Origin: a virus
Lineage: Duplodnaviria > Caudoviricetes
IMG/VR virus record: IMGVR_UViG_3300032243_001247
Location: 1-29,331 of that record
DNA: 29,331 bases
Direction: 5' to 3' (one strand)
The notes beneath the pieces were generated by a model. That model ran no database searches and had not been told where the DNA came from. It saw nothing but the letters and a program-made list of their open reading frames with translations. The position numbers and the translations under genes were made by a program. The number at the start of each line of letters is the position of its first letter. Positions within the stretch are counted from its first letter, which is position 1. This document shows positions 1,836-28,200 of the stretch, in pieces.

Positions 1836-2050
1836 TTCTCAACAATGAAGAAGTCATTGCTTGGCTAGATAGCCTAGAACGAGATTCAAAAGCCCTAAAA
1901 CGAGAAATAATGCAGTTGTGCTGGTACATGCGAGGCAGTGTGTCATATACCGAAGCCATGGAAATGAGCCCATTGGAGCGTGAAACCATAGTCAAGTTAG
2001 TCAAAGAGAATTTAGAAACTGCTAAGAAATCAGGAATGCCATTCTTCTAA
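1832..2050 (+). CDS. gp51-like small baseplate/tail chaperone domain, probably the C-terminal part of a frameshift product
   Basis: 72 aa, LCWYMRGSVSYTEAMEMSPLERETIVKL. Weak TTG start overlaps the upstream TGA and lies in the -1 frame. Confidence 0.65.
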   Translation: MILNNEEVIAWLDSLERDSKALKREIMQLCWYMRGSVSYTEAMEMSPLERETIVKLVKENLETAKKSGMPFF

Positions 2051-2073
2051 GATCTCTAACGAGATCTGTTGTT
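2050..2073. terminator. Hairpin at a convergent junction (terminator or 3' stem of the ncRNA)
   Basis: AGATCTC-TAAC-GAGATCT (2050-2067) followed by GTTGTTT on +, immediately after the stop codon. Confidence 0.4.
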
Positions 2074-2462
2074 TCGCTTGCGCTCACAACACTGTTTCTC
2101 TGACTTTAGTATCATCCAGATTAATCGGTCACACTTTGCCCGCACAGGGCAAAGAGAGCATCATCCGAGTAGCACGATCACTAGTATTAGAACATTGCAG
2201 AGGCGGTTGTCCGGTACCTCGAGTTCAGTCTTTATCACAACGGCGGATCGACGATAACATACTAGCGTAATTGTCGACCGTGCAGTATCACTACTGCGTC
2301 TTTTTAGCCTTAAAATTTTCTTCAAACAATCAAACCGCGGCCTTTGGCGATCTTCGTCCTGTCAAGGATAGTGATTGAGTGCTCTGCACGGCGCAGAGAC
2401 TTCCGTCCCAGTGACCCGAGGTCCTGTTTTCTTAGGCACACGTTATTTGACTTGTGCGAGTC
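2050..2462 (-). ncRNA. Putative large structured non-coding RNA of unknown family, downstream of the GIY-YIG gene
   Basis: By far the longest intergenic gap in a tightly packed window. At least 8 helices, a long-range stem (GGTCAC 2127-2132 / GTGACC 2411-2416), GNRA loops and G-U wobbles on the - strand, and an 8-bp pseudoknot-like complementarity (2259-2266 with 2180-2187). Confidence 0.65.
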
Positions 2463-2894
2463 TTAACCGTTTAATTTCTTTATGTGGGAGCCATGGACAC
2501 GGACAGAGATTTGTCCGTTGTAGTATTCTTGTGATTCTAGCACTTTGTGTGTAAATTGTTCTCGAGCTTCGATATAACTACATTCGGCCTTGGAGCAACA
2601 GTAGTACATGATTTCTCTTGTAAACTGATCTGCGCCCAAAGCCGCAACATCTTTATTCAATTCATCGTTTGAGCCATAATATGTTTGCCAGTCAGAATCT
2701 ATTTTGCTTCTGATCTTTTTCTTCTTCTTTGTGCCGTTTTTGAGTTTTACTACTTTGTATGTGGTCTTTGCGAATTTCGCTAGTTTTTTACCTATGTATT
2801 TGCGCCCTGATACAAGATTCGTGATGATATAGACAAAGCCCACGCAGTCTTCGGGTAATTCTTGAACTGGTAAACCTTGATAAGTCCATGTCAT
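2463..2894 (-). CDS. GIY-YIG family endonuclease (Seg/EndoII-like, stand-alone)
   Basis: 143 aa with GFVYIITNLVSGRKYIGKK (GIY-YIG motif), DWQTYYGS, F(T)REI, a likely catalytic E in YIEAREQ and YYN. Lys-rich insert KNGTKKKKKIRSK. Confidence 0.85.
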   Translation of the reverse strand: MTWTYQGLPVQELPEDCVGFVYIITNLVSGRKYIGKKLAKFAKTTYKVVKLKNGTKKKKKIRSKIDSDWQTYYGSNDELNKDVAALGADQFTREIMYYCCSKAECSYIEAREQFTHKVLESQEYYNGQISVRVHGSHIKKLNG

Positions 2895-2945
2895 GCATTG
2901 TAATTATGCCTTTGTGTGCCATGATTAAATATTATTAAAATTGTG

Positions 2946-4715
2946 TTACACTATCTCAACATCAGTGTTGTAAGTGGTAAATCCGTTTTCTTTGACCACG
3001 TGCAAGGTGTTGTTCACACGCCCTGCAAGTTCGTCCTTGTGACTCACCAACCAAATTGATTTATTGCTGTCTCTGCTCATCTTCTTGAGAATGGCCAGAC
3101 TGTTTTCAACACCGCTGGAATCCATGCCAGAATCAACCAGTTCGTCGATAAACAACAAGTTGATGGGTTGGTACAGGCTTTCCCACACATCGCGGAATGC
3201 CCACGACAGGCTTAGGATCAGTCGGTTGCGTTCACCACGGCTCAAGTTGTCAAAGTCTAGGTCTCTGCCCAGTTCGGTAATGGCCACAGTCAAGTCGTTG
3301 TTGAATTTTACAGTATGCGGCAAGCCGATGCGATCCAGGTACTGCCCTAGTCTAGCATTCAGGTAACTCAAATTCTGATCAATAATGCGCTTGCGGATAA
3401 AACTGTCTTTGTTGGTCAGCAGTTTCAACAAGAAATCTTGATGCTCTCTCAAACTTACCAGTTCGTTCATAACACCAAAATCAATTTCTTCCAGCGCCTG
3501 CTCGCTCATGTCTTGTATTTGTTCGCTGTAAGGATCCACTTCGGCTTCTTTGGCAGTCAGTTGTGCCAACACACTGGCCATACTCGACCGGTGTTCGAAT
3601 GCATCACTTTCGCGATCGTAAAACACTTTGGGCTGTGTGCCCAATTCACCCAATGCTTGTAGCGAATCGGTATGCTCTATCCACTGCCCGTTGGTTGCCA
3701 GTGCTTGTAGTGCAGTTTCTTGCAGGTCCCGGCGCTTCTTTTCCAACAATGCTTCTTGCTTTTCGTCATGAAACCCTTGCCCACAACTGTGACAGGTATG
3801 ATTTTCCAAACTGGCAATTTCAGCCTTGAGTCGTTCTATGTCTTTCAACTCTCGAGCTTCGTCCAGTTTGCAACGCTGTATCCAGCCAGTTAAATCTTTG
3901 ATTGTTTTTGCTTTTTCGTTGTAGGCCGACAAGGCCATGTGCGCCGCCAGTTCGGTTTCGATATCAATTCGGCTCAGTTCATCAAATGCAGATTGGAATC
4001 GAGCAATATCTTCTGTGTGTTTGGCCTGCCACATGCGCTGGCGTTTACGCAGATTTTCTATCTGTTCTTCTATGCGCCGATTGGCATCGCTCACAGCCTT
4101 GATGCGAAATTCTTCGGCTGTGATGGCATCTTTGGTGGCTTTGCCTAGTTCTTTGAGTCGTTCTGCCTTTTCACTCAGGAGTGTAATGCCCAACAACTGT
4201 TCAATTATGAGTCGTTGATCGTTGGCCTTTAAACTTAAAAAAGGCTCAGTATAAGTGTTGAGTGCCACAATGTGTTTGAACATGTCGTGACTCATGCCCA
4301 ACATGCGTTCAATTTCGGCCTGTGTTTCTCTACTATCGCCTTGACTGTCGTCGGTGATTTCTTTTTCGTTACCACCAATCCAGAATTTCATCACGCCCGG
4401 CTTGCGCCCGCGCTCAATGCGATAGTCAACACCGTCTTTTTCAAAATCAATCGTGACCATCATGCCTTTGCTGTTGGTCTTGTTGATCAGGTTGTCTTTC
4501 TTGATATTGGTAAGGGCGTTGCCGTAAAGGGCATAGGACAGAGCATTAATTATGGTTGTCTTCCCGGTCCCGTTACGAGCTCCTGAGTCATCGCCCCCTA
4601 GGTCTAGGTTTTCGCCCAGCACCAAGGTCAAGTCTCTGCGGTCAAAGTTAACCGCCTGCGTGGTATTGCCCACACTCATAAAGTTACGAACAGTTAAATC
4701 TTTTATTTTAAACAT
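2946..4715 (-). CDS. gp46: Rad50/SbcC-like recombination ATPase (T4 gp46-like)
   Basis: Walker A GARNGTGKT, coiled coils around a CHSC zinc hook, signature LSRGE, Walker B/D-loop LLFIDELVDSGMD, H-loop VSH. Start overlaps the upstream stop (TAATG). Confidence 0.95.
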   Translation of the reverse strand: MFKIKDLTVRNFMSVGNTTQAVNFDRRDLTLVLGENLDLGGDDSGARNGTGKTTIINALSYALYGNALTNIKKDNLINKTNSKGMMVTIDFEKDGVDYRIERGRKPGVMKFWIGGNEKEITDDSQGDSRETQAEIERMLGMSHDMFKHIVALNTYTEPFLSLKANDQRLIIEQLLGITLLSEKAERLKELGKATKDAITAEEFRIKAVSDANRRIEEQIENLRKRQRMWQAKHTEDIARFQSAFDELSRIDIETELAAHMALSAYNEKAKTIKDLTGWIQRCKLDEARELKDIERLKAEIASLENHTCHSCGQGFHDEKQEALLEKKRRDLQETALQALATNGQWIEHTDSLQALGELGTQPKVFYDRESDAFEHRSSMASVLAQLTAKEAEVDPYSEQIQDMSEQALEEIDFGVMNELVSLREHQDFLLKLLTNKDSFIRKRIIDQNLSYLNARLGQYLDRIGLPHTVKFNNDLTVAITELGRDLDFDNLSRGERNRLILSLSWAFRDVWESLYQPINLLFIDELVDSGMDSSGVENSLAILKKMSRDSNKSIWLVSHKDELAGRVNNTLHVVKENGFTTYNTDVEIV

Positions 4716-5731
4716 TAGAGATTTCTATAGATATCTAGTAGTAAGTTCTTGTTAAACTTATCGCTTTCGATGTTGCTGAGCTGTCCTGTGACAATTTGAT
4801 CAACACTTTCAAATTCAATATTGCCTTGAATTTCATACTCTGTTAAATCCGTTACTTTGGCTGGAATCAAGGTGATTTCACGCAGATTATATTGTCCAAT
4901 GAAAGTTTCCTTGATAAAGGTAGCTTCTTCGTAGCTGATGTCAATGTCCAAGTTTACCCGTACGTGCATGTTGGGTTGCAACATCACTTCGGTATGCTTT
5001 AGTACATCACTCAAATTGAACACACGATAGCGCGGTTGGTCAGGCCAGGCATGATAAACCGGATCCTGCCCCCATTCAATGATGGTCAAGCCTCTATCAT
5101 CGTCACCGGCATCGGCGTAGTTGTGCGGAAAGCAGTTGCCAATGTAGGTGATATTCTTTTGTGTTTGGCGTTTGTGAAAGTGCCCAGTGAACACATGATC
5201 AAATCCACCAAAGTGTTCTCTGCGTACTTCACCGTGTTCGGGCATGGCAACCATGGCATTCATCAAGTAGCCAGGCAGTTCAAAATGTCCGAACATGTAT
5301 CGGCCCTTCAGTCGCGGAATCCGTTTATGGTCATCACCACATAACCAAGGTGCGATAACGACATCACCATCACTAAACCAATCGTTACATATTTGTACAT
5401 TGGAGAGATGCTTTGCCCATTCGACACTTTGTATATCGCGTTTATCGCGATAATATAAATCGTGATTTCCAGGAATAAAATAAACACGCTCAAAATTCGC
5501 ATTCAAGTGCTCCAGTGCCTGCAGGCTGTAGCCCAAGGTCAATATGTTGATGCTGGCACGATTGTTGTGCCAGTCGCCCAGAAACATGGCTGTTTCGCAA
5601 CCTTCTTCTCGAGCTTTGGCAGTGGCCCATTTAACAAATGCCAAACAATCTTCATTGTGTAGTACACTATTGCTTTTCAAGCCAAAATGGATATCCGTAA
5701 AGACAGCCGTCTTTTTAAAGAGGTTACTCAT
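4715..5731 (-). CDS. gp47: Mre11/SbcD-like metallophosphoesterase nuclease (T4 gp47-like)
   Basis: Phosphoesterase motifs DIHFG, GDWH, GNHD, GHF, GHFH. Directly upstream of the Rad50 homologue. Confidence 0.95.
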   Translation of the reverse strand: MSNLFKKTAVFTDIHFGLKSNSVLHNEDCLAFVKWATAKAREEGCETAMFLGDWHNNRASINILTLGYSLQALEHLNANFERVYFIPGNHDLYYRDKRDIQSVEWAKHLSNVQICNDWFSDGDVVIAPWLCGDDHKRIPRLKGRYMFGHFELPGYLMNAMVAMPEHGEVRREHFGGFDHVFTGHFHKRQTQKNITYIGNCFPHNYADAGDDDRGLTIIEWGQDPVYHAWPDQPRYRVFNLSDVLKHTEVMLQPNMHVRVNLDIDISYEEATFIKETFIGQYNLREITLIPAKVTDLTEYEIQGNIEFESVDQIVTGQLSNIESDKFNKNLLLDIYRNL

Positions 5732-6617
5732 TGATTAATAAATTTCTTAAATCGGTTGTATTCGTAGGAAACACATCAACATTGTAGCATCTCATGGCCA
5801 GGCCATGCAAGTCTCTTAATGCCCATTGGACAAATGCTTCGTCATACAGACTCAAATTTTGATCAGCCCAATCGTATTCGGTGCCGTTGACTGCGGATTC
5901 GATTATGTGTTGGCACACAGCATCTTTGTTTAGATGACGCTGTAGGCTTAACCATTTTGCAGTTACCAAACCGATGTGTTGGCGATGCTCGTTGCTCCAG
6001 CTCAATCCCAATTGGCCAAACAGTTGATCCAGCGCATTTTCCAGATTGCTGATCAAATTAGGCAATGGCAACACAACACAGTTTCGATCAATGCTGTAGT
6101 ATTTGCTGTAGAAATATCGTGTGCCCAAAATGAAATTTGAAATGGCCTCCCTGGTTTCCCAACGAGCCATTCCTTCTTGCACGTGTGTGTGCAACATATT
6201 TTTAATACCACTACCGCCGGCAATTTTGTCTATGGCATTGTTGATCAACAGTAGAAAATTGGTTTCTGCTGGTTGTATACACACAACATGGGCCAACTGC
6301 GAGCAGTATTGATCTATGTACTCTTGCATGTCTTGCTCGTCGGCATGAGTACGAGCAAACTGTACCACTCCCTCGCTGTTGAGGTATGTGTCTATACCGC
6401 TCAGTTCGGGTGCATTTTGAAAGGTATAGCTGGGCCGTTTGATTTGATTGCCACGAAACCGGTGTGCCGACCCGCTTCGGTCCACAAATGGCCAAGACTG
6501 TTCGCCTGCTGGCAAAACTCCGGTAAAATAATTAAAACACCATTCTAGGAATGTGCCGTAAGCACCTGGCGGATATGCAATAAGGATGGTGTCTTTGTGG
6601 TTATTCGTCTGCGTCAT
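5724..6617 (-). CDS. Hypothetical protein, possibly a degenerate sulfotransferase-like P-loop fold
   Basis: Likely start is ATG 6617 (MTQTNNHKDTILIAYPPGAYGTFLEWC), preceded by GGTGG. The N-terminal beta strand plus YPPGAYGTF resembles a PAPS-binding loop. Overlaps both neighbours. Confidence 0.6.
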   Translation of the reverse strand: MTQTNNHKDTILIAYPPGAYGTFLEWCFNYFTGVLPAGEQSWPFVDRSGSAHRFRGNQIKRPSYTFQNAPELSGIDTYLNSEGVVQFARTHADEQDMQEYIDQYCSQLAHVVCIQPAETNFLLLINNAIDKIAGGSGIKNMLHTHVQEGMARWETREAISNFILGTRYFYSKYYSIDRNCVVLPLPNLISNLENALDQLFGQLGLSWSNEHRQHIGLVTAKWLSLQRHLNKDAVCQHIIESAVNGTEYDWADQNLSLYDEAFVQWALRDLHGLAMRCYNVDVFPTNTTDLRNLLINE

Positions 6618-7500
6618 ACCCACCGCCACCACCACCCCAAGTGCCGCCTTGTCCTTGGCGTGTGTAGCTGGGTGTAAGTCCATTCATTTCTAATATGTCA
6701 TCACGCAGGTTTTGGCTACGCTTTTCAATATTCAAGACACGAGTAAAGCTATTAGTGATAGCGGCAGTATAATACGCAAAAGGGTTCTGCGATTTTGATT
6801 CATCAAATTGCAATCCGATTTGACTGAGTTGTAACAGGGCTTGGCTTCGCATTTCGTCATTGTAGGTATATCCTCTCCAGTTTGATCTTGTGGCATAACG
6901 CTCACACAACTTCATAAACATGTGCGCCAGTGTTTTGGTCATGGCACCGTGGTCCTTGCTGAATTCCCCAGTAATCAAATCGCCACGCCAATGACTTTTG
7001 CCCACCAAGTAAGGTGTACCATCTTCGGCCACCTTGTAGTGAAAAAATGGAGGGAAATTGCATTTGGTATACTTGGTGGGTGCCTTGACCACATCGGGAT
7101 CGTCATACTCGGTTAGCAATTCTTCTTCAATCACAACAGCACCTTTTTTGACCTTGGGCGCGGCAGCCGGCACATGTTCCCAGGTCATAACCCTAAATAC
7201 CACATCTTCTGCGGCGACTTCTTTGAGTCGGACTTCAAAATCTTCTAATCTTTTCTTATTGGCTTTGGCAGTACCGTCTATGTTGGCCAAATCAAATGCG
7301 GCCTTGGTCAGTCGGTCTGCACGGAGTCGTCGTGCTTCCAGTATGTTTTTTTTGTTTATCTTGGCCACATCCAACAAAATCATATCATAGTCTGCATAAC
7401 TGGGATCCAAATAGGTGCAGTATGTGTTTTTGCTTTTGTGTATTTCTTTCAGTATGTCTTTATTATTGAGATAATTTTTAACTTTAATTGGTGGTATCAC
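6601..7500 (-). CDS. gp55: Late-transcription sigma factor (T4 gp55-like)
   Basis: NYLNNKDILKEI; KLCERYATRSNWRGYTYNDEM; FDESKSQNPFAYYT...NSFTRVLNIEKR match gp55 family motifs. Linked to gp47/gp46 as in T4. GTG start with AGGA RBS (7511-7514). Confidence 0.85.
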   Translation of the reverse strand: MIPPIKVKNYLNNKDILKEIHKSKNTYCTYLDPSYADYDMILLDVAKINKKNILEARRLRADRLTKAAFDLANIDGTAKANKKRLEDFEVRLKEVAAEDVVFRVMTWEHVPAAAPKVKKGAVVIEEELLTEYDDPDVVKAPTKYTKCNFPPFFHYKVAEDGTPYLVGKSHWRGDLITGEFSKDHGAMTKTLAHMFMKLCERYATRSNWRGYTYNDEMRSQALLQLSQIGLQFDESKSQNPFAYYTAAITNSFTRVLNIEKRSQNLRDDILEMNGLTPSYTRQGQGGTWGGGGGGYDADE

Positions 7501-12130: not shown

Positions 12131-15100
12131 ATGGATTTAAGATTAGGACGCAAGTTACCAGATTGGGCCAACCAAGACACAGTTGGCGGCATGAAGTTCG
12201 ACAAAGGCATCTACTCTGCTATTGTGAAATTGAATGTGGACCCGTTGCGTCTTGGTAGACTGCGTGTGTGGATTCCAGACTACGGTGGCAACGAAGATGA
12301 TGCAACCAACTGGCGCTGGGTAAGATATGCCAGCCCATTCTATGGCAGCACCATGCAGAGCGAGCACACCAAAACCAACAGTTATGCACAGACAGAAAGT
12401 GTGTATGGCATGTGGATGACCCCACCCGATGTGGGCAATGAAGTACTGTGTTGTTTTGTCAACGGTGATGCTGATCGCGGCTACTGGTTTGCTTGTACCA
12501 CCACGCAGAATTTGAGTCACGGGGCTGTGCCGGCCATTGGTAGATACAGCGAAGCAGTTGATAGAGAAACTGTGGAAAGTGCCTTGGTACGCAGTAGTCT
12601 CAATAGACCAGAGCCAGTGTATTTGCCGCAGTCTGAATTCAACGAAAACGACCCTGCCAACATGACAGCACAGTTTTTGACCAACAAACTGCCAGTGCAT
12701 GAACCACAAGCTGAGATTCTTATCAATCAGGGACTAGACACAGATCGAGTTCGCGGAGCAATCAGCTCCAGCAGTATGCGAGATGCTCCCAGTGCGGTGT
12801 TTGGCATCAGCACACCAGGTCGTGCCACCGACGGCGGAGTACTGCCCAAAACTCGCCAGGGTGGACACACATTTGTGATGGACGACGGTGATGATGCTGG
12901 AACAGATCAATTGATTAGACTGCGTACTGCAGGTGGCCATCAAATCTTGATGAATGACGCCGAACAGGTGCTGTACATTGCCAACAGCGCAGGTTCTTCT
13001 TGGATTGAATTTGGCAATTCGGGTCGTATTGATCTGTACAGCGCACAAGGACTGGCCATTAGAACACAGGGCACATTGGACCTGCACAGCGATTCTAGTG
13101 TGAACATACAAGGTGCCAGTGTAAACATCAAGGCTCTAGGCAGTTTGCAAATGCAAAGCAGTTCTCTAACTGCCAGAGCCAGTACAGGCATGACATTGTA
13201 CAGCGCAACATTGGGTGTGGCAGCATCTGGTGCATTGACAGTCAATGCTGGTGGCGAACTGGGCATAGCATCCACTGGTGCTGAATTGAAATTGGTTGGC
13301 ACAATGATTCGTCTCAATGAAGGCGGTGTGGGCACAGTTAGTGATCCAGGCGAAATCAGATCAAACAGTCTGCCAGACACCAACAAAGACCAAGCCACAC
13401 AGCTATGGAGCACAGTCTTGAGTTCATTGGACTCAATTGTGACGGTGGCACCTGCACATGAGCCATGGCCTAGAAATACTGTTGCAGTACCGTCATCGGG
13501 TGTGTCTTCCACTGCGGTGACTCCGGTGTGTACCGATGTTGCCCCACCGGCAGTACTGCCATCGGGCGGCACAGGTGGCACAGGACCGCTGGGTGACATG
13601 ATCAGCAAATACGAGTCAGGCGCCGCTGGCTACAATGCGTTCAATCGTGGATCAAGCCCACCAAAAGGCACTGGCACAGTGGGCGGAGAAAAAATGAATT
13701 TGGTGGGCATGACCATAGATCAAATTTTGACAGCAATGAGCAGTTCAGATCCATACACTAGATTGTTTGCTGTTGGCCGTTATCAGTGTATTCCTGACAC
13801 ACTAAAAGCCGCATGTAAAAAGTTAAACATACCAACAACTTCTTTGTTTTCTGCCGAAGTGCAAGATAAAATATTCATTGGTGCATTGTGTGATGTCGGG
13901 TCATTGCGAGCATATCTCAAAGGTGGCGATCAAAACGATGATGCCGCTTTGACCAATGCGGCTTCGACCATTGCAGGCATATGGGCATCAGTTGAAGACC
14001 CCAAGTTGGGGCGCGGTCGCTACGATGGTGTCGGTACCAACTCGGCACATTGCAAAACAGCCGAAACAAAAGCCGCACTAAAAGCACAATGGGGATTCTT
14101 GCGCCAAGGCGCGGTGACATCTGGATCAGGTTCAGTTGTTACAGATGGTTCGGGCAATGCAATTAAAACAGGATCCAGTCTGGAAGACATTGGTATAAAA
14201 GGCGCCGCAGGGCAAACTGTGGTCAAACAAGCTCCGGCCGAGTTTATGAAGAAGGCAGATGCTCCCAGCCCTGATCTTGCGCTAGAAGGTCGCGGCACTC
14301 CGGGCGAAGCCAATGCTATACCCGGCTTGACCATACTACAGGTCAAAGCATTGGCAGTACAGATGTCTTTTGCAGAAAGCGACAGCAGTCCACAATTCAA
14401 ATCCAAATTCAGAATTGGTCGTTACGGAGTCAATGCTGTGTTGTTGGCTGAATACGGATTTATCAAACCCGACTACATGCGTAAGTACGGACAGGATGCA
14501 ATTAACCAGCCCAACAGTTGGACCGGCAAGGGCGGAATAACATCTACAGACAATTTCTTAGGAAACCCTGCCGCACAAGACGAATGCATGTTTGGGTTCA
14601 TACGAGATGCCTACAAAAAACTAGTCACCAGCAGTCCGCGCGGCATTGATTTTGGTGACAGTATATGTGTGGCAGCCGGCATGATCAACGTGGCCTATTT
14701 CTTTAGAGAACAAACACAGACATTTGGCAGTGATGTCAATGCCATGGTGTTGGCAGCCGCCCATTGGCGTAAAACTGGTATGGGCAAAGACAATGCCGGG
14801 GCTTCTCCAGTTAACAGTTACAATCAAGGCAGATATGCAATTGATGTGTTGAGTCAGGCTCCCATTGCGGCTTCAACTGCTGGAGTTGGCACAGGGTCTG
14901 GCATAGACTACGGAACAGAATCTGGTGTGGATCCAACCACTGTGCTGATCTTTACTTCAGGATCAGGCGACTTTGCACACTACAAACAGTTACCAGCCGG
15001 CATTAGAACTGCAATGGAACTGATGGCCAAAGAGTACAAGACCTTGACAAAAGGATCAATGATCACAATCAACAGCGCATACAGATCACTTGATGAACAA

Positions 15101-15334
15101 ACAGCAATCTACAATGCATGGCAAGCCGCAGGTGGAAGTCCAACCAACAAGAAAGCTGGCGGGTACTACATGCCCAGCAAGCCCAGCACAAATTCTCCGC
15201 ACTATAGAAAAGTTGCGTTTGACATAGCCAGCGCAGACATTGCACAATTGAGCAAATTGGGACTGTTGGACAAGTACAACTTTGGTTATCCTTTCCCAGT
15301 GAATGATCCAGTACACATTCAATACATAGGGTAA
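12131..15334 (+). CDS. gp5: Baseplate central spike (gp5/VgrG-like) with lysozyme-like and M15 peptidase domains
   Basis: OB-fold DPLRLGRLRVWIP...PPDVGNEVLCCFVNGD...GYW, beta-helix repeats, HEPW. Then ES...YN...AVGRYQ...QD...WAS muramidase, a second ES...IGRY domain, and C-terminal SAYRS..EQ / SPHYRKVAFD / DPVH. AAGGA RBS. Confidence 0.85.
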   Translation: MDLRLGRKLPDWANQDTVGGMKFDKGIYSAIVKLNVDPLRLGRLRVWIPDYGGNEDDATNWRWVRYASPFYGSTMQSEHTKTNSYAQTESVYGMWMTPPDVGNEVLCCFVNGDADRGYWFACTTTQNLSHGAVPAIGRYSEAVDRETVESALVRSSLNRPEPVYLPQSEFNENDPANMTAQFLTNKLPVHEPQAEILINQGLDTDRVRGAISSSSMRDAPSAVFGISTPGRATDGGVLPKTRQGGHTFVMDDGDDAGTDQLIRLRTAGGHQILMNDAEQVLYIANSAGSSWIEFGNSGRIDLYSAQGLAIRTQGTLDLHSDSSVNIQGASVNIKALGSLQMQSSSLTARASTGMTLYSATLGVAASGALTVNAGGELGIASTGAELKLVGTMIRLNEGGVGTVSDPGEIRSNSLPDTNKDQATQLWSTVLSSLDSIVTVAPAHEPWPRNTVAVPSSGVSSTAVTPVCTDVAPPAVLPSGGTGGTGPLGDMISKYESGAAGYNAFNRGSSPPKGTGTVGGEKMNLVGMTIDQILTAMSSSDPYTRLFAVGRYQCIPDTLKAACKKLNIPTTSLFSAEVQDKIFIGALCDVGSLRAYLKGGDQNDDAALTNAASTIAGIWASVEDPKLGRGRYDGVGTNSAHCKTAETKAALKAQWGFLRQGAVTSGSGSVVTDGSGNAIKTGSSLEDIGIKGAAGQTVVKQAPAEFMKKADAPSPDLALEGRGTPGEANAIPGLTILQVKALAVQMSFAESDSSPQFKSKFRIGRYGVNAVLLAEYGFIKPDYMRKYGQDAINQPNSWTGKGGITSTDNFLGNPAAQDECMFGFIRDAYKKLVTSSPRGIDFGDSICVAAGMINVAYFFREQTQTFGSDVNAMVLAAAHWRKTGMGKDNAGASPVNSYNQGRYAIDVLSQAPIAASTAGVGTGSGIDYGTESGVDPTTVLIFTSGSGDFAHYKQLPAGIRTAMELMAKEYKTLTKGSMITINSAYRSLDEQTAIYNAWQAAGGSPTNKKAGGYYMPSKPSTNSPHYRKVAFDIASADIAQLSKLGLLDKYNFGYPFPVNDPVHIQYIG

Positions 15335-19206: not shown

Positions 19207-22200
19207 ATGGCCATCAACAGTAGCACTTTAAAATTCTTACCAGCAATTTTTCAGACTGACACAAACGAGAAGTTTTTAAATGCCACCCTGGATCAACTGA
19301 CAGCCGATGCTGACCTGCGTCGCGTCAATGGCTATATTGGTCGCAAATTTGCACCCACTTACAAGACCACAGACAACTACATTGCTGAACCCACCGCGGC
19401 CAGACAAAACTATCAGCTAGAGCCATCTGTGGTTGTGCAAGACAAACAAGCTGGCACGGTCAGCCTGTTTTCAACCTACATCGACCTGATCCAACAAATA
19501 AACACACTGGGCGGCAACACCACAGACCACAGCAGACTGTTTGCCAACGAAAGCTACACATTCAGCGGACTGTTTGATTTTGACAAGTTTGGCAACTACA
19601 ACAACTACTACTGGTTGCCTGACGGTCCAGCGGCAGTGGATGTGTATGCAGGAACAGTTGACACAGCAGAAACATTCACAGTTACACGAAATTTGGCAGC
19701 CAATGGATATAATTTTTCAGGCAAAGGTGCAGGCGCTAATCCTGTGCTGACTTTGGCTCGCGGCGGCACATACAAGTTTAACCTGGGACAACAAGGCAAC
19801 CGCTTTTGGATTCAATCTGAGCCTGGTATTGCAGGCACAATGGCCACACAGTCCAATGTCAGCACACGCAATGTTTATGGTGTGTCCGGCAACGGCGCCA
19901 GTGTTGGTCAAGTAGTGTTCTCGGTGCCCAGAAGCACAGCACAAGATTACTATAGCAAAATGACACAGGCAGCCTCAGTTGACATTGCCACAACATTTAG
20001 TTATAAACAAATACAACATCAAATGTTGAGTGTGCTGTTGGCACAGCATCCAGATGTATTTGACGGCGTGGTAACAAACCTAAACAAAAAATCTTTAATC
20101 TTTGTCAACACTGACATTGATGATGCACTATGGGAAACTCCCGGCATATTTGATAAAACTGGTGAGCCATATGATTCAACTGTGTACGATCCCGGTGACA
20201 TTGTGGCGGATTCGCATCGCAGAGGCAGTTGGATAATTGATCTACAACCATCAGACGATGACGATTATTTGGTAGTATTGACTCCGGACAACCAAGTACT
20301 GCCCAATCAACGAGTGTATGTGGCCAGTGGTTTGACCAACGCTAATCAAAATTACTGGCTCGAGCGCACCCAATTCTATTCGTTGGTGCCCGAAAACACA
20401 GCCGCATTAAATAGACTGTACTATCAAGATGGATCAGATCCCAACCTGTTTGGTGTTATTGAAATTGTTGAAGCCGACGGATACAGCATTGATGTCAACA
20501 ACAACATCATTGGGCAACGAGCCTACACCAGTCCAAACGGTGTGATATTCACCAATGGATTAAAAGTTCGCTTTGACAACACAGTGGCCGATACAGCCTA
20601 CATTGACAATGAGTATTATGTTGAAGGAGTAGGTACCAGCATAGCATTGGTCAAGGTTACAGACCTAGTAACACCTGAAGCCTATGCAGCCAATGGTATC
20701 AACACACTGGACTACATTACCATCAACAGAGACAGCATTGATCACAATGCCTGGAGTCGTAGTAATCGTTGGTTTCACATTGATGTGATACAGGCCGCTG
20801 CCAAGTACAACAACACAGTGGCATCACCGGATCAAGCATATCGTGCTCAACGCCCTATCATTGAATTTGAAGGACATCTACAACTGTTCAATGCCGGCCG
20901 TGTGGCTAAAACGCCGGTAGATCTACTGGTCAACGGAAATGTCATAACAGATGTTATGACTCAAGTTGAAGGTTACCCAACCATGGGCAACAGCTATGTC
21001 ACCGTTAGTGGCATTACCTTTGCTGATGGACAGCGTGTAATTTTTGCTGACGATAACGATCTTGGCATAAGAAATTCTATTTTTGTAGTAAGTGTAATAG
21101 ACACCACAGGCGGTAGTTATGCCGATAGAAAACTACATTTAACTTTAGCAGATGACTATGAAGTGTTGGAAGGTAATTGTATAAATATCACCAGTGGTGC
21201 AAACGCAGGACTGAATTTCTGGTACAACGGCTCAACTTGGGCACAAGGACAACTAAAAACCAAAGTAAATCAATCGCCGTTGTTTGACATAGTGGATGCC
21301 ACGGGCACTAGTCTTGGCGATATAGCAACATACCCAATCAGTAGTTTTACTGGAACTGCTGTATTTTCCTACAAAGTTGGCACCGCAGCCAACGACAAGG
21401 TGTTGGGATTTCCGTTGAGTTATAGAAACTTCAACAGCATCGGAGACATACAATTCATCAACAATTTTGACACCGAAGCAGTGACCTACGCCAGCGGAAC
21501 CAGCACAGTATCGGTGCCAGTCAATTACAACTTCTTAAAGCAAAATACCAACATATCAGAATACAAGAACAGAAATATTTGGGTCAAAAACAACGAAAAT
21601 ACCAAACAGTATCAGATATTTTCTTATGCTTATAATGGTAGTACCAACTATTTCCCTGTGGATATTGCGCCCGAAGCTGAAACAGTTGTCCCTTACACCA
21701 AAGTTTTTCTCAACAATCAACTGCTAAAAAGCAGTAACTACTCGTACACTCTGGTGGGCAGTAGACCCACTGTTAGAGTTGATTATCAACTGTTAAACAA
21801 CAATGACAAAATTGATATTTTGATCTACAGCAAATCTGTGAGCAAGACCGGCTATTATGAAATACCCAACAGCCTGGACTACAACAGCAAGAACAGCAAT
21901 TTCTCTTCGCTAACACTGGGGCAAATTAGAAATCACATCACAAAGATCAAAGAAAATACCAAATTGGCTGTGGAAGTTGGCAGCACTTTCTCCGGATTGC
22001 GTGATATCAGCTACAAAAACAACGGCGGCAATATTGTGCAACAAAGTGCTCCGGCCATGTACAGCAATATTTTCCTAACAGACAAAAACTTAAACTTTGC
22101 ACAGGGCATAGATTATGCCGCAAAAGAGTATACTCGCTTCAAAAACAAGTTCCTTGAGTTGGCAACCAAGTTGGAGGCTGTTGATCCAAATGATGTGGCA

Positions 22201-25200
22201 GCCAGTGTTGATGCAATATTAAAAAGCATAAATGTTATTAAAAACAAAACATTTCCTTGGTACTACAGCGACATGGTTCCTTACGGGGACAATGCCAACA
22301 TAATCAACTACAGCATTATTAATCCGCTGACCAAACAATACGAAATCACACAAGTATTTGTTGATATAGAACTAAGCAACCTTGCTGTGTTAGTTTACTT
22401 GAATGGAGTACAACTGGTCAACGGTGTTGATTTTGTATTCCCACAAGATCGTAGTGCAATTATACTTGATGACTCTATCACATTGACTGCTGGCGACTCG
22501 TTGAAGATTGTTGAGTACTACAACACCGACGGCAGCTTTGTGCCAGAGACCCCCAGCAAACTGGGCTTGTATCCAAAGTTTGCACCGCAACAATTCGTGG
22601 ATTACAGTTATATCACACCAGTAGAAGTGATACAAGGACACGACGGATCAATCACACCAGTGTTCAACGATGTGCGCGACAGTCTGTTGTTGGAATTGGA
22701 AAAACGCATTTATAACAATATCAAAATCAACTATGAAACACACATATTTGATTTGTATGATCACTTGCCTGGCAAATTCAGAAACAACGAGTATACTTTG
22801 ACTGAATTCAACCAGATCCTGAGCAACAAGTTTTTGCGCTGGGTTGGTGATAACAAAGTTGATTACAGTACCAATAACTATTTTGAGTCAGGCAATGCTT
22901 GGACTTGGAACTATAAGAAATTCAAAGACCGTGTAGACGGAAGCACACTGCCTGGCACCTGGCGTGCCATCTTCAGTTACTTCTTTGACACATATCGTCC
23001 CAACACACACCCTTGGGAAATGTTGGGCTTTGGTCAAAAGCCCACCTGGTGGGAGGACCGGTATGGTCCAGCACCTTACACAGGCAGTAACCGATTGCTA
23101 TGGGAAGATCTTGAAGCCGGCTATATTCATGCTGGAACAAAAGCCGGCATAGACAAACGCTTTGCTCGTCCAGGCCTGAGTCAAGTGATTCCGGTTGATG
23201 ACTACGGTAGTCTACTGAGTCCTGAGAAATGGGTAACAGCCACGTTTGACAGCCTAAAAGCCAACAGCAGTTATAGCGTGGGTGATCAGGGTCCTGTAGA
23301 GTTTGCCTGGAGAACCAGTAGTTATTTTCCTTATGCTATGCAATATGCCTTGGCCTTGAGCAAGCCTGGCTACTACTTTGGCAGTCTGATCAATGTTGAC
23401 CGCTATTATCGTAACACCATCATTGACCAGCTGGTCAACAAAGACACACATCAACGCATCACCCCCGATACTGTGGTCATCAACGGTGATACCACTACAG
23501 GCACTGCTACTCGTAGTGCTGGTTATTTGAACTGGATCAGGGACTATGTGTTGAGCTTGGGCATAGACCCAACTGTGTTGCTGAAAACTTACTTGAACAC
23601 AGTCAACATCCAACTTGGCTACAAAGTGGGTGGATATACGGATAAAAATTTCATTGAAGTGTTGGCTGAACAAGGGTCGCCGACCAATACCAGCAACAGT
23701 ATTATTATCCCAACAGAAAATTACAGCGTACAGTTAAATGCCAGCACACCCATTCGCAAGGCCGTGTACAGCGCCGTGGTGGTTGAGCGTAGTTCAAATG
23801 GATTCACTGTCAACGGCTATAATCAAAACAGTCCATACTTTACCATTATACCCAGTTTGGCCAACAACAATTTCTACATAGTAGAAGCACTGAAACGCCG
23901 TGGCGTGATTTACAAAGATTATCAACCTGTTAAACTGACTGTGCCCTATGGATTTGAATTCAACACCGAACAAGAAGTGGTTGACTTCCTGGTCAGCTAT
24001 GGCCGTTATTTGACAGCACAGGGATTCAAGTTTGAAACTCAAGATGACAACCTGGGCGAAACTCGCAACTGGGTGTTGAGTGCAAAAGAATTTTTAAATT
24101 GGGCACAACAAGGATGGCAACCTGGCAGTATTATTGTGTTGAGTCCAGTTTACAACGAATTGGTAAACATACAGCCCGACGGTGTGATTGGCACAATTGA
24201 AAATACTCCCAATGGCACAAAGGTATTGGATCAAAATAGCAATTTTATCAATAATACACAATTTACAGAAAGTCGCATTGGCAACAGGTTTGTGTTAAAC
24301 AGCCTGTCAGATCAGACCATTTGTCTGGCCGACTTTACTGTTATACAGTACGAACATGCCATCCTGTTTGACAATGTCACGGTGTTCAATGATATTTTGT
24401 ATGTGCCTGAACTGGGCAATAGACAGTATAGACTAAAACTGATTGGCAGTAAAACAGGGTCGTGGACCGGCACAATGAGCCCTCCTGGATTTGTTTACAA
24501 CAGCACACAGGTTGATCCATGGCAACCAGGTGTTGATTACCTGTTGGGCAGTATTGTTCAGTACAAAAACTTGTACTATACCGCACTGGACAATATCACA
24601 GCCAGTGCAGAATTTGTGCAAAATAAACAATGGCGCCAAATAAATCACAGCAATATCAAGACTGGACTACTGCCTAATTTTTCTTACAATGCCACCAGAC
24701 TGGAGCAGGTATACGACGTTGACAACTTGCCCAGCGACATGACATTTGAAGGCTACGGAACCAGCCTGATTGGATTCCGCAAGCGCGGCTATCTAAGTAA
24801 CTTTGGTCTAGATGAAACCAGTCAAGTGAAGTTTTTCCAAGGCTTCATCAAAGAAAAAGGCACATTGAATGCCATCACTGGTTTGACCAATGCCAAAGTC
24901 AACGAATGGGCTGGTGGCATAGATATCTATGAAGAATGGGCATTGCGTGTTGGTGAGTATGGATCTTTAAACAGCGATCAAGTAGTTGAATTGATCTTGG
25001 ATGAAACTGTGGTCACAGCCAATCCAGCGGCCATAGAATTGCTAAACAACGGAGACATTGAAACTTTATCCAGTGTGGTCAAGTTCCATCCCACAGATCT
25101 ATACCGAGCACCTGCCAATTTCCAGAAAAACATATTCTTCAATCGCAACGAGTTGGCCGACACAGTCAGCGACATACAAACAGCAGGATATGCCAGTTTG

Positions 25201-28200
25201 ACCGATGTAGATGATACACTATTCAGTTTTACAACCTACGGCAGTCTCGACACAGTGCTCAACAAGATAGGCCCTGGATATCACATATGGGTGGCCAAAG
25301 ATTATACCAACAACTGGAATGTTTATCGAATCACAGAAACACAAATAAATGTCACCAGTTTGGTCTACAACATTGACAATTTGATGACAGTGAACTTCAG
25401 CGCAGATCCCATGTTGACCGCAGGCGATGTGTTTGCAATCAAGGCATTTGATTCAAGGTTAGATGGATTTTACCAGGTCTATGCTGTGAATGGACTGACC
25501 AGTGTACAAGTGGCCATTACCAATACTGCAACTGTTGCAACCAGTACCGGAGTAGACAACTCTAGAACCAGCACAGTAAAAGAACTCAAAACCATAAATG
25601 GCTACGGAGTATACTACAAACTTCAATCAGTTAGATTGAACAGTCTAATAGAAGCCAATGGCATTATTCCTTTAAACGGATGGGAATCCGGGGACAAGTT
25701 ATGGGTTGATCACACCACTGTGGAAAACGACTGGGGTGTGTTTGAAAAAGTTGATGCTTGGACACCTTTATCCAAGGCTGTCACAGACGAAGCCGCCAGT
25801 GCAAATGCAAATTTTGGCACTACCATTACCAGTAGCAAGTTGGCCAACAACTTCTTTGTCGGATCACCAAACTACAGCAACAGCAATGGCTCTACCGGCA
25901 TAGTCAAAACATTTTCTAGAACAGGAACAAAAGTAACACAGACCAGTAAGTTTGATCCAAGATCCAGCTCAGTGGGCCGTTACGGTCAAGCAATCACAGC
26001 ATCAGACTATGTGGTAGCAGTTGGTGCGCCAACTAGCAACACCAACCGAGGCTATGTGTATGTACACACCTTGTCCACTGGAACTCTGCAAATCTTAACC
26101 AGCAATGTGGCCGCTGTCGGTGATTTCTTTGGCAATGCTGTGGCCATTGGTGATAACAATGATTGGTTATATGTTGGCGCTCCAGGTGTAAATTCTGTTT
26201 ATGTATATAATCTTCAGGACAGCATTGCCACCCGGAGCAACACTGTCACATACACCACCACTTTGGTTGCCAATGTGACCAGCGGCAATGCCAACATCAC
26301 GGTGAGTTATCCATCGTCCATTGATATCAATAGAATTTTTAACGGAACCACAGTAACTGGACCCAATCTGCCAAGCGGAACCACAGTGGTATCAGTAAAC
26401 GGCAATTCAATACTGCTGTCCCAGCCAGCATCGGCCACATCAAACTATGACACGGTAGTTGTCACATCCAACACCTGTCAATTGAGCTATACACCGGCCA
26501 GCAAATATGCATTAGAAATCAGCGATCAATACAACAATTACATTGTGGATGTTGATTTTACACTGAGTGGAAACACCATTACATTTGCAAATCCTCCTGT
26601 TGATGCAACCAAAATCTCTATCTTGCAGGCAAATTACTACACGCCAACTGGTCGAGTAGTAATACCCACCGATGTGGTTGCCGGCGACGGATTCGGCGAA
26701 GCAGTACAAACCACCGATGATGGCAAAACACTATTTGTTGGTGCGCCAGGTCAAAACAGCAACGCAGGTGCAGTTTACATATACAAATTGTTTGAAGAAA
26801 ACTACAACAGCAACTTGGACAACTTGTATGTGTCGGCCAAGTCATTTGGCACATATACCAAAGTCTATGTGGACGATGTACTGCAAGTGCCTGGTCTATA
26901 CACAGTGACCAGTGGCATTAGACTCAGTTTTGTGACACCATTGACACTGGGACATGTGGTCACCATTGTGAGCGATCAGTGGGTGTTGGTACAGAAGATC
27001 ACAGAACCCAATGCCGCTGCCGGCAACCGATTCGGCAGTTTGATCACCATTGACCATATCATGGGATCTGCGTTCTATGTGTCTGCCCCCAACACAGCAC
27101 AGACCACCAAGGAAACTGGTGCAGTATACAGATACTCAGACACAGCCAAAATCACTGGATCGGTGGTGGCTGCCAACTATCCCGACTATATCAAACGATC
27201 AGTGATCAACGGCAACACATTCAACAGCAACATTGGAATCTACATCAACAATTACTTTGTTGATTTGAGTTCTGCTGTAGAAACAACAAATCAGTACGAT
27301 ACTGCAACTCCTCCCAACCTGGTAACTCCAGCAGGTTATGCATATCCAGATGTGTGCGTGTCCTTGATCAACTTGGCCAGAATACCATCAGTCAGTGCCA
27401 CAGTGATACCAGATGGATTCTTTGCCATCACCAGTTCACGCAAGAATAACAACAACAAACTGGCCATCAGACCCAATGGATCAAATCTATTGGACACCAT
27501 TGGGCTATCGGTCTATAACTTGGATCAGGTAATCAAGCATCCTGCTGGATCGCTGGGCATTGGTTTTGCATCTGCAATCAAATACAGCCCCGACACAGAG
27601 ACCCTGCTGATATCCAGTACACAAGACAGTGTTTACTATGTGTCTGAAATTGACACAGGTAAAACCACATTCGACCGTAGATCTACCAGACCCATTGATG
27701 CTGTTAAATCCACCGGCTCAGTTTACATGTACGAGATGTTGTACGACATCAATACCGGAACTGTCAATACCGGAACAATGAGCTATGTGCAACACATCAA
27801 GTCAGACTCGTTGAAACTGAACGACCAATTTGGATCCTGTGTTGAAGTCAACAAAGATCTACTATTGGTTGGGTCGCCTGGCAATGACAGTGTGGCCACA
27901 AATGCCGGTGCGGTGTATGTTTACACAAATATTGATCAGAAAAAGAATTGGACACAGATACGCAACAGAGAAGCTCGCGTTGACCTCAATAACATCAACA
28001 AATTGTTCATATACGATAAGCTCACAAATTTGATCAATACCAGCTTGGACTACATAGATCCAGTCAAGGGCAAAATATTAGGCATCGCAGAACAAGAACT
28101 AGATTTCAAAACAGCATTAGATCCTGCTGTGTACAATGCAGGTACCAAAGCCGGTGTAGCATTCAACAATGGTTATCACTGGAATGAAAGATACGTTGGT

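Follow-up and report, generated by a model that had tools for sequence, protein, structure and literature searches.

The stretch of DNA analysed here (the window) comprises the 29,331 nucleotides (nt) of IMG/VR virus record IMGVR_UViG_3300032243_001247 and is a fragment of a T4-like phage whose near-complete relatives have genomes of 345-355 kilobases (kb). On its minus strand a late sigma factor gene, gp47, gp46 and a gene for a 143-amino-acid (aa) GIY-YIG nuclease are followed by a gap of 412 nt. Comparison with relatives shows that this gap holds a real, covarying, doubly pseudoknotted minus-strand RNA-like structure (the element), whose host is a giant phage of freshwater type. Its 5' domain is a known RNA family, Polynucleobacter-1 (RF01718); the 3' 130 nt, with two matched 7-nt repeats and terminal hairpins, extend that family and were not found in print. 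A preliminary description of the gap had offered a nuclease-bound RNA, a new ribozyme or a structured replication origin. We favour the last, giving a little less than an even chance to the reading that the element RNA re-pairs with its own DNA template and primes a phage replication origin.

Relatives were collected in two ways. Retrieval with the nuclease sequence gave 80 loci, of which 58 contain a full-length element, six are cut by a contig end inside the element, six have its 3' part only, one has another structured gap, six have a gene directly after the nuclease and three are uninformative. An RNA-pattern scan added 120 loci. From 163 full-length elements, 124 non-redundant ones were kept (partial hits and sequences more than 93% identical were dropped; mean identity 66%). 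We estimate that about 1,400 stored stretches in IMG/VR contain the element. A metagenome set was also used; it overlaps the viral set, and its scan constrained repeat copy 1 but not copy 2.

Covariation was scored over the 124 elements by a G-test against 12 tree-based null alignments. Thirty-six column pairs exceed the best null score: 27 Watson-Crick or G-U pairs, four same-letter pairs between the two repeats and five others. On a 45-sequence alignment (A1), an 83-pair model derived from the same data reaches 89.5% pairing and shows double changes in 63 of its pairs; none of 500 shuffles does as well. In the inner stems G-U outnumbers A-C on the minus strand by 83:0 and 180:15; this is the strand to which the preliminary description had assigned the G-U pairs and GNRA loops. 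Among the 42 of 124 sequences with a four-nucleotide loop called in the inner hairpin, 19 have GUGA and 13 GCGA. Folded as a single sequence, the element does not beat shuffled controls on the minus strand (z -1.09, with 17 of 100 shuffles as good; plus strand, z -1.95). The case for structure rests on the relatives.

The 5' domain (2324..2462, minus strand) consists of hairpins P1-P3 and a three-way junction, identified by cmscan and covariation. It is followed by the doubly pseudoknotted core (2182..2323, minus strand), also supported by covariation and with helices 10-13 paired at 96.7-100%. The core contains two covarying hairpins (2282-2297 and 2246-2279), a kissing helix (2260-2264/2182-2186; 98.2% paired, double changes in all five pairs), a second pseudoknot (2237-2241/2206-2210) and two further helices (2223-2226/2190-2193 and 2217-2219/2201-2203), the last three supported by covariation and by pairing in A1, all on the minus strand. 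It is compact and has many invariant unpaired bases. The eleven helices proposed earlier all have their arms in place, and ten hold at least partly. The 13-position stem (2246-2258/2267-2279) is present with two non-matching positions on the plus strand, while the stem at 2200-2220 keeps its outer GAGG/CCTC as a simple complement and its inner part is better explained by the second pseudoknot. Only the long-range GGTCAC/GTGACC stem has to be given up: it is 64.6% paired against 64.0% in shuffles, 134 of 500 shuffles are as high, its 5' arm sits in a local hairpin, and 2425/2410 covaries. The TAGCG loop was considered as a plasmid single-strand origin and this was rejected because the loop covaries with its pseudoknot partner. 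The loop that follows the ACCGCC core is enlarged in four loci (L001, L002, L018 and L021) by an optional A+T-rich hairpin, which in L001 and L002 contains a tandemly repeated decamer.

No known RNA had been recognised in this gap, but positions 2324-2462 match RF01718 over model positions 1-141 of 141 (cmscan, 102.7 bits against a cut-off of 37, E 1.9e-21). This removes the novelty of the 5' part; the 3' 130 nt lie outside the match. In the available parts of the 2010 survey by Weinberg et al. (PMC2864571), Polynucleobacter-1 is a single table row marked possibly cis-regulatory, and the supplementary alignment, of about 280 nt, runs through the GGUACCGG...ACCGCC core with the kissing pseudoknot drawn and lists one copy in NC_009379.1. 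The element shares with it the full 141-position model, the downstream core, the kissing pseudoknot and a freshwater or estuary origin. Nothing in those parts describes the jumbo-phage locus, the exchange of nucleases and of 5' scaffolds, the second pseudoknot or the 3' 130 nt. They give no function either, and none was found in the literature since 2010. A literature search that was thin on subscription journals showed no publication dealing with the 3' part or with a system of GIY-YIG nuclease and RNA.

Known ribozymes and large RNAs (GOLLD, ROOL, OLE, HEARO, introns, RNase P and tmRNA) gave no Rfam or ARAGORN match. Neither the element, compared by blastn with cultured phages and plasmids, nor its divergent type (see below) gave a blastn match. 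Scanning bacterial genomes gave 120 loci, but the element profile fits neither these nor four cultured-phage loci; they are chance matches in GC-rich DNA and the scan is uninformative on absence. Sampling 151 genomes from the family of one Burkholderiaceae-labelled genome, a set in which no positive control matched, did not turn up RF01718. The family is also absent from two partial contigs and from three complete genomes of cultured phages whose GIY homologues are distant.

The evidence for the proposed self-targeting lies in the 3' tail. Two copies of GGATGAT occur on the minus strand, copy 1 (2160..2166) preceded by CTC and copy 2 (2111..2117) by TCT, the second 49 nt after the first and marking, on the template strand, the predicted landing site of the RNA. 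Between them is a hairpin (2134..2154, minus strand; 91.9% paired, 805 of 868 cells Watson-Crick, little covariation) followed by a conserved TGAC. The two copies are identical in all 124 elements, that is, in the 120 caught by the pattern and in the four that it missed. All 54 parsimony changes, at five positions, are concerted, a concordance as strict as that of the pseudoknot base pairs (14/14/14 changes). In the metagenome set the copies match in 113 of 114 cases, the sole exception being a G against an A. The repeat takes few related forms, and its two copies are 47-65 nt apart across relatives.

Since two words of the same sense are kept identical, the simplest partner is the complementary DNA strand. 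This is reinforced by three negative results: no third complementary site at a fixed position within 1.5 kb, no GIY-YIG residue that tracks the repeat sequence, and no reverse transcriptase (PF00078) in any of five records, two of them near-complete, in which positive controls matched. The last result also separates the element from template RNAs of the retron, defence-associated reverse transcriptase (DRT) or telomerase-like kind. The edges of the repeats point the same way. At position 8, copy 1 has G and copy 2 A in 92 of 120 elements and the reverse in none (77 against 2 in the metagenome set), and at position 9 T/C exceeds C/T by 16 to 4 (21 to 5). Most of these mismatches, at the 3' edge, are ones that would form wobble pairs were copy 1 of the RNA bound to the template strand at copy 2.

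A free structured RNA would be an alternative, either a ribozyme or a scaffold whose repeats serve as twin binding or cleavage sites for a protein encoded elsewhere. The compact core, its two pseudoknots and invariant unpaired bases and the GNRA loops of the inner hairpin would suit such an RNA, and the spacing of the repeats fits a folded strand rather than duplex phasing. However, each of the concerted repeat changes, which occur in many combinations, would then need a matching change in the protein, and a search for known ribozyme families stays negative up to E 10. We consider a free RNA unlikely. A translational role suggested by stop codons in the repeats (URA in 124 of 124 type-A elements) was rejected, as several divergent types are without them.

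The tail ends in two terminal hairpins (2050..2091), of which the first has a GNNA loop and G-A pairs in tandem; covariation is seen at 2089/2069 and at 2061-2064/2053-2056. These hairpins show no G-U strand bias (9:16 and 30:23), and a third of their four-base loops are not GNRA (GNRA 44, GNYA 24, GNA 12). Such features suggest that they likely act as single-stranded DNA. A review locates mini-hairpins of this kind at N4 promoters and at the sites where G4 and RSF1010 are primed (PMC13037366, in the part available). In the near-complete genome G003 the only two tandem-GA mini-hairpins in 345 kb are both at the element, one per strand. A CGAAG word lies upstream on the opposite strand in 84 of 124 relatives and is not evident in the window itself. 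The DNA-type loops and absent strand bias of these hairpins could mean that the whole element works as folded single-stranded DNA. We see very little chance of this: the inner stems have a strong one-strand G-U bias together with GNRA loops and pseudoknots, and contigs covering the element occur in RNA libraries (which may contain DNA).

The distribution of the element and its relatives is also informative. Each of two near-complete 345-355 kb genomes (G003 and G004) has one copy. A pattern for the divergent type found 120 loci, of which 71 have the expected stem partner and 67 of these 71 a matched pair of other sequence; this type has a covarying fold of its own, and its 5' part may be unrelated. 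At least four other 5' RNA scaffolds occur at the same site with a similar repeat-hairpin tail (L023, L030, L073, L054, L080, L037, L326, L348 and L350), and 11 divergent loci gave no Rfam match. At nine of 28 loci with a PD-(D/E)xK resolvase, an RNase HI gene directly precedes a variant element (L326-L333 and L335; for example L326:3636-4055). Two complete siphoviruses of 29-30 kb (G008 and G011; L523-L526) carry a relative, and no polymerase, primase, helicase or initiator was found in them when 83 of 87 open reading frames (ORFs) of at least 55 aa were compared with PHROGs and 43 with Pfam. Both are without a recognisable integration gene and encode several methyl- or glycosyltransferases.

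Among cultured phages, Phosso has a syntenic 1-kb gap between RNase HI (L652:1100-1486) and the resolvase, and PA5oct a 660-nt gap at the same locus, whose likeness to the tail (a near-repeat and a hairpin-TGAC module) was judged purely by eye; SCTP-2 has no such gap. In PA5oct and Phosso neither profile gave a match, nor did a strict search for two perfectly matched 7-nt words. Assuming the same coordinates, since the genome lengths agree, the PA5oct gap is not among the four non-coding RNAs defined by RNA sequencing in the available part of PMC7318152, which is a further point against a free RNA.

Several small phages carry a relative just upstream of their terminase genes (L354, L359, L364, L365, L438, L440, L479 and L481). 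An RNA-DNA hybrid might therefore mark a site of packaging, termination or concatemer processing instead of an origin. The element lies near a skew maximum, transcription converges on it in about half of the loci (25 of 52), its neighbour is resolvase-like and the promoter motif is presumably of late type, all of which would be in keeping with this. Against it, the element of G008 and G011 is several kb from the terminase genes, no terminase gene adjoins it in the T4-like loci, and the look-alike gap of PA5oct, at about 77 kb, is away from the terminal-repeat region. We regard a packaging or termination site as distinctly unlikely.

We prefer the origin-primer reading because the repeats are identical and change in concert, the edge mismatches have the direction expected of wobble pairs, the element is single-copy, the small siphoviruses are without a recognisable initiator and RNase H genes are among the neighbours. 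Starting from the observed fold, strand bias, repeats, terminal hairpins, single copy and independence from the nuclease, we infer transcription, hybrid formation, processing and priming as follows. Transcription would begin at a motif before the nuclease gene and continue through the element. The knotted core would then position repeat copy 1. Once the polymerase unwinds copy 2, some 50 nt further on, the first copy in the RNA would pair with the template there and seed a persistent R-loop. RNase H or a branch-cutting nuclease would trim the RNA to a primer, and the GNA/GNNA hairpins in the displaced DNA would serve as loading sites for helicase or primase. The GIY-YIG protein would be an interchangeable junction-resolving nuclease made from the same transcript.

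The putative promoter is ATAATTA (TAA[C/T]TA class; 2901..2907, minus strand), just 5' of the nuclease start codon, which we take to resemble a T4 late promoter. Of 59 loci with an element, 39 have the motif no more than 30 nt from the GIY start (37 of them at 11-15 nt), as do none of five loci without one; the genome-wide background is 22 of 355 and 7 of 307 genes. It is also visible by eye 5' of several PD-(D/E)xK genes. Because it is so positioned ahead of the nuclease gene, the element likely depends on the nuclease transcript. The junction between the GIY gene and the element, at most 74 nt in 46 of 52 loci, is the tightest of the locus (gp46-GIY, at most 300 nt in 22 of 62; element-gp51/gp26, at most 37 nt in 25 of 52), so that the two are likely co-transcribed. 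Assembled contigs from six sequencing runs, in small shares, cover the nuclease gene and the 5' two thirds of the element; those of related phages from RNA libraries, which may contain DNA, stop at several points (2178, 2201 and 2235) and so mark no single end.

A transcript of this kind also raises the alternative of a cis-regulatory 3' untranslated region or bidirectional terminator of the gp47-gp46-nuclease transcript. The element starts where the nuclease gene stops, the gene opposite is often convergent, terminator-like sites occur on the plus strand at 2050-2067 and 2280-2299, and the 2010 table's mark (PMC2864571, as available) could be read in this sense. Nevertheless, the element is kept where the downstream gene is on the same strand and where the upstream gene is replaced or divergent, and a terminator needs neither pseudoknots nor matched repeats. 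This is, in our judgement, highly improbable.

A number of points weigh against an origin primer. The data across the element are assembled contigs and show nothing of the strand, ends or abundance of a transcript. Strand skew does not help to place an origin: after correction and detrending, the GC skew has its peak some 10 kb away, as a maximum and on opposite sides in G003 and G004. In G004 the strict mini-hairpin pattern matches two coding sites and not the element. An RNase H gene is absent from G003 and G004, so that a host enzyme would be needed. The fixed difference between CTC and TCT before the repeats is unexplained by the model, and the G/A preference at position 8 could reflect two independent constraints. 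The siphoviruses have many small ORFs without annotation, among which an initiator could be concealed, and there is no base rate for such phages. The promoter motif presumably belongs to the late type. T4 origins, in contrast, fire from middle promoters, and their R-loops need no folded RNA and no specific sequence, at least in the part of PMC3016281 available.

The preliminary description proposed above all an undescribed nuclease-RNA system, in which the RNA would bind, guide or regulate the GIY-YIG nuclease as a dedicated ribonucleoprotein. Linkage between the two is indeed tight. Among viral loci found through the RNA and with enough upstream DNA, the GIY gene is directly upstream in 63 of 70 and within 1.5 kb in 66 of 70; in 61 metagenome loci it is adjacent in 49 and further off in seven, while two have a PD-(D/E)xK gene and three have neither. 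The junction is interrupted less often than its neighbours, and the nuclease model has a basic beta-hairpin. However, the same RNA also occurs behind an unrelated nuclease fold or no nuclease. In L119 and L162 the gene before the element encodes a PD-(D/E)xK nuclease. Of the 28 PD-(D/E)xK loci, in which no GIY-YIG hit was found, eight have the same full-length element directly behind the nuclease, seven a second type and two another structured gap; nine are those with an RNase H gene and then a variant element, and two have nothing within the flank. Full elements stand without an adjacent nuclease in four loci (L145, L552, L584 and L585).

The converse is also seen. GIY genes 76-79% identical and with the same basic insert are without an adjacent element in six of 80 loci, no large downstream gap follows the GIY gene in the four cultured homologues viewed, and several unrelated RNA scaffolds sit behind near-identical GIY proteins. 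RNA identity follows protein identity weakly (Spearman 0.26). The variable guide-like segment sought beside a conserved scaffold was not found, the variable stretches being stems, short linkers or an A/T-rich spacer. RNA and nuclease thus each occur without the other, and the RNA is not tied to one nuclease family. With a replaceable or absent nuclease, GIY genes lacking an element, weak co-divergence and a known 5' family, the partnership is unsupported; we consider a dedicated ribonucleoprotein very unlikely, and the claim of an RNA-guided GIY-YIG nuclease should be dropped. Two single loci may be recorded here. In L189 the element lacks its 5' end and the GIY gene continues straight into it, apparently because one deletion removed the gene's C-terminus along with the first hairpins of the RNA. 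In L552 the full-length element stands alone among small genes and is preceded by tandem iteron-like repeats, about 300-420 nt upstream of the pattern match.

OMEGA RNAs (omegaRNA/HEARO) are large pseudoknotted RNAs beside a small nuclease gene (IscB or TnpB). The element is likewise large, pseudoknotted and next to such a gene but differs in having no variable guide, no transposon context that we could see and a partner that is replaceable or absent.

The nuclease itself (2463..2894, minus strand; phrog_447) is, by its sequence, an ordinary member of PF19835 (E 1.4e-33, 116 bits, cut-off 25), a family matched in 475 phage records. It is a SegE-type single-domain GIY-YIG protein with a lysine-rich beta-hairpin. 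Residues Y22, Y33, G35, E109 and N126, presumably catalytic, are invariant in 20 of 20 nuclease sequences. In the AlphaFold2 model (predicted local distance difference test score, pLDDT, 81.5) the hairpin strands are 41-50/56-64; together with Pfam, the model upholds the earlier observation of a very basic insert and no separate DNA-binding domain. The model matches GIY-YIG folds in BFVD, whereas Foldseek found no match in the PDB at E 0.001 and a PDB sequence search gave a single weak match. In PHROGs and in many GenBank records phrog_447 carries the label 'NAD synthetase'. For this GIY-YIG family the label is contradicted by both the Pfam match and the fold.

The GIY-YIG gene is replaced in place by a PD-(D/E)xK nuclease (PF24608/phrog_244, RusA-like resolvase in PHROGs). 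Two near-complete GIY phages have one full SegE gene each and no PD-(D/E)xK_15 or Endo VII gene, and two partial PD-(D/E)xK phages have no SegE gene. Because each genome has one without the other, both nucleases would do the same job, probably resolution of DNA branches, and the GIY-YIG protein is likely the junction-resolving nuclease of the phage, and a replaceable one. For both families such resolvase activity is predicted. The suggestion that GIY replaces Endonuclease VII has partial support: Endonuclease VII was not found in five uncultured records (a T4 positive control matched), and Endo VII-type domains are present in two of four cultured GIY phages. The nuclease occurs as one conserved copy per near-complete genome and excludes the PD-(D/E)xK gene at one locus, which sets it apart from mobile homing endonucleases.

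The remaining features of the locus are as follows. Upstream on the minus strand are the gp46/SbcC-like recombination subunit (2946..4715), gp47 (4715-5731) and the late sigma factor (6601-7500), assigned through PHROGs (phrog_77, phrog_100 and phrog_12791 are cited for this context). Convergent to them on the plus strand are the baseplate hub gene gp26 (981-1835; PF12322) and a 72-aa ORF (1832-2050) from the ORF list. As noted previously, the gap is without a credible ORF; the only ORFs at 2051-2462 are short (54-62 aa) and overlap one another. Upstream of the GIY gene, its junction with gp46 is a hot spot for insertions (L003, L005, L008, L011, L029 and L031), and the inserts are often CxxxCxxC-motif genes resembling radical-SAM enzymes. 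A conserved ORF of 80-110 aa lies between gp46 and either nuclease (L010, L015, L040 and L119:462-740); its copy in L119 has no Pfam or PHROGs match. Elsewhere in the window, a tail-region ORF of more than 3,375 aa with FG-GAP repeats occupies 19207-29331, and a baseplate OB-fold protein (12131-15334) has a weak D-Ala-D-Ala carboxypeptidase match at its C-terminal end.

In ColE1 RNA II an upstream tract of the RNA pairs with the downstream template strand, and the element has an upstream tract that, by its sequence, could do the same. RNA II is about 550 nt, has an antisense RNA I and bears no sequence relation to the element; no antisense RNA was seen in the element, no strand-resolved reads having been examined. 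The element's own matched sites, each of 7 nt and separated by about 50 nt, can change in sequence, and both R-loop and priming are predicted. RNA II is further described, in the part of PMC5043065 available, as a long non-coding transcript whose fold decides the persistence of the hybrid, with RNase H processing and no initiator of its own. The T4 origins oriF and oriG also belong to a T4-like phage, with initiation primed by a transcript and a promoter followed by an A+T-rich stretch; unlike the element they are about 100 bp, sequence-independent, served by middle promoters and without folded RNA (PMC3016281, same part). The analogy with an R-loop primer is drawn because RNA II, with a fold, and oriF and oriG, without one, both prime from transcripts.

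More generally, the element could represent a widespread class of phage origins, with interchangeable knotted scaffolds and a reprogrammable 7-nt self-targeting anchor, free of an initiator and used from 350-kb jumbo phages to 30-kb siphoviruses. We hold this as possible if somewhat doubtful. If true, it would be an origin device that can be retargeted by changing two matched words. Should the primer reading of the element hold, it would offer a simple system for studying how a folded RNA seeds an R-loop; Polynucleobacter-1, for which no function has been found since 2010, would gain a job, and a large group of uncultured jumbo phages would gain a candidate origin.

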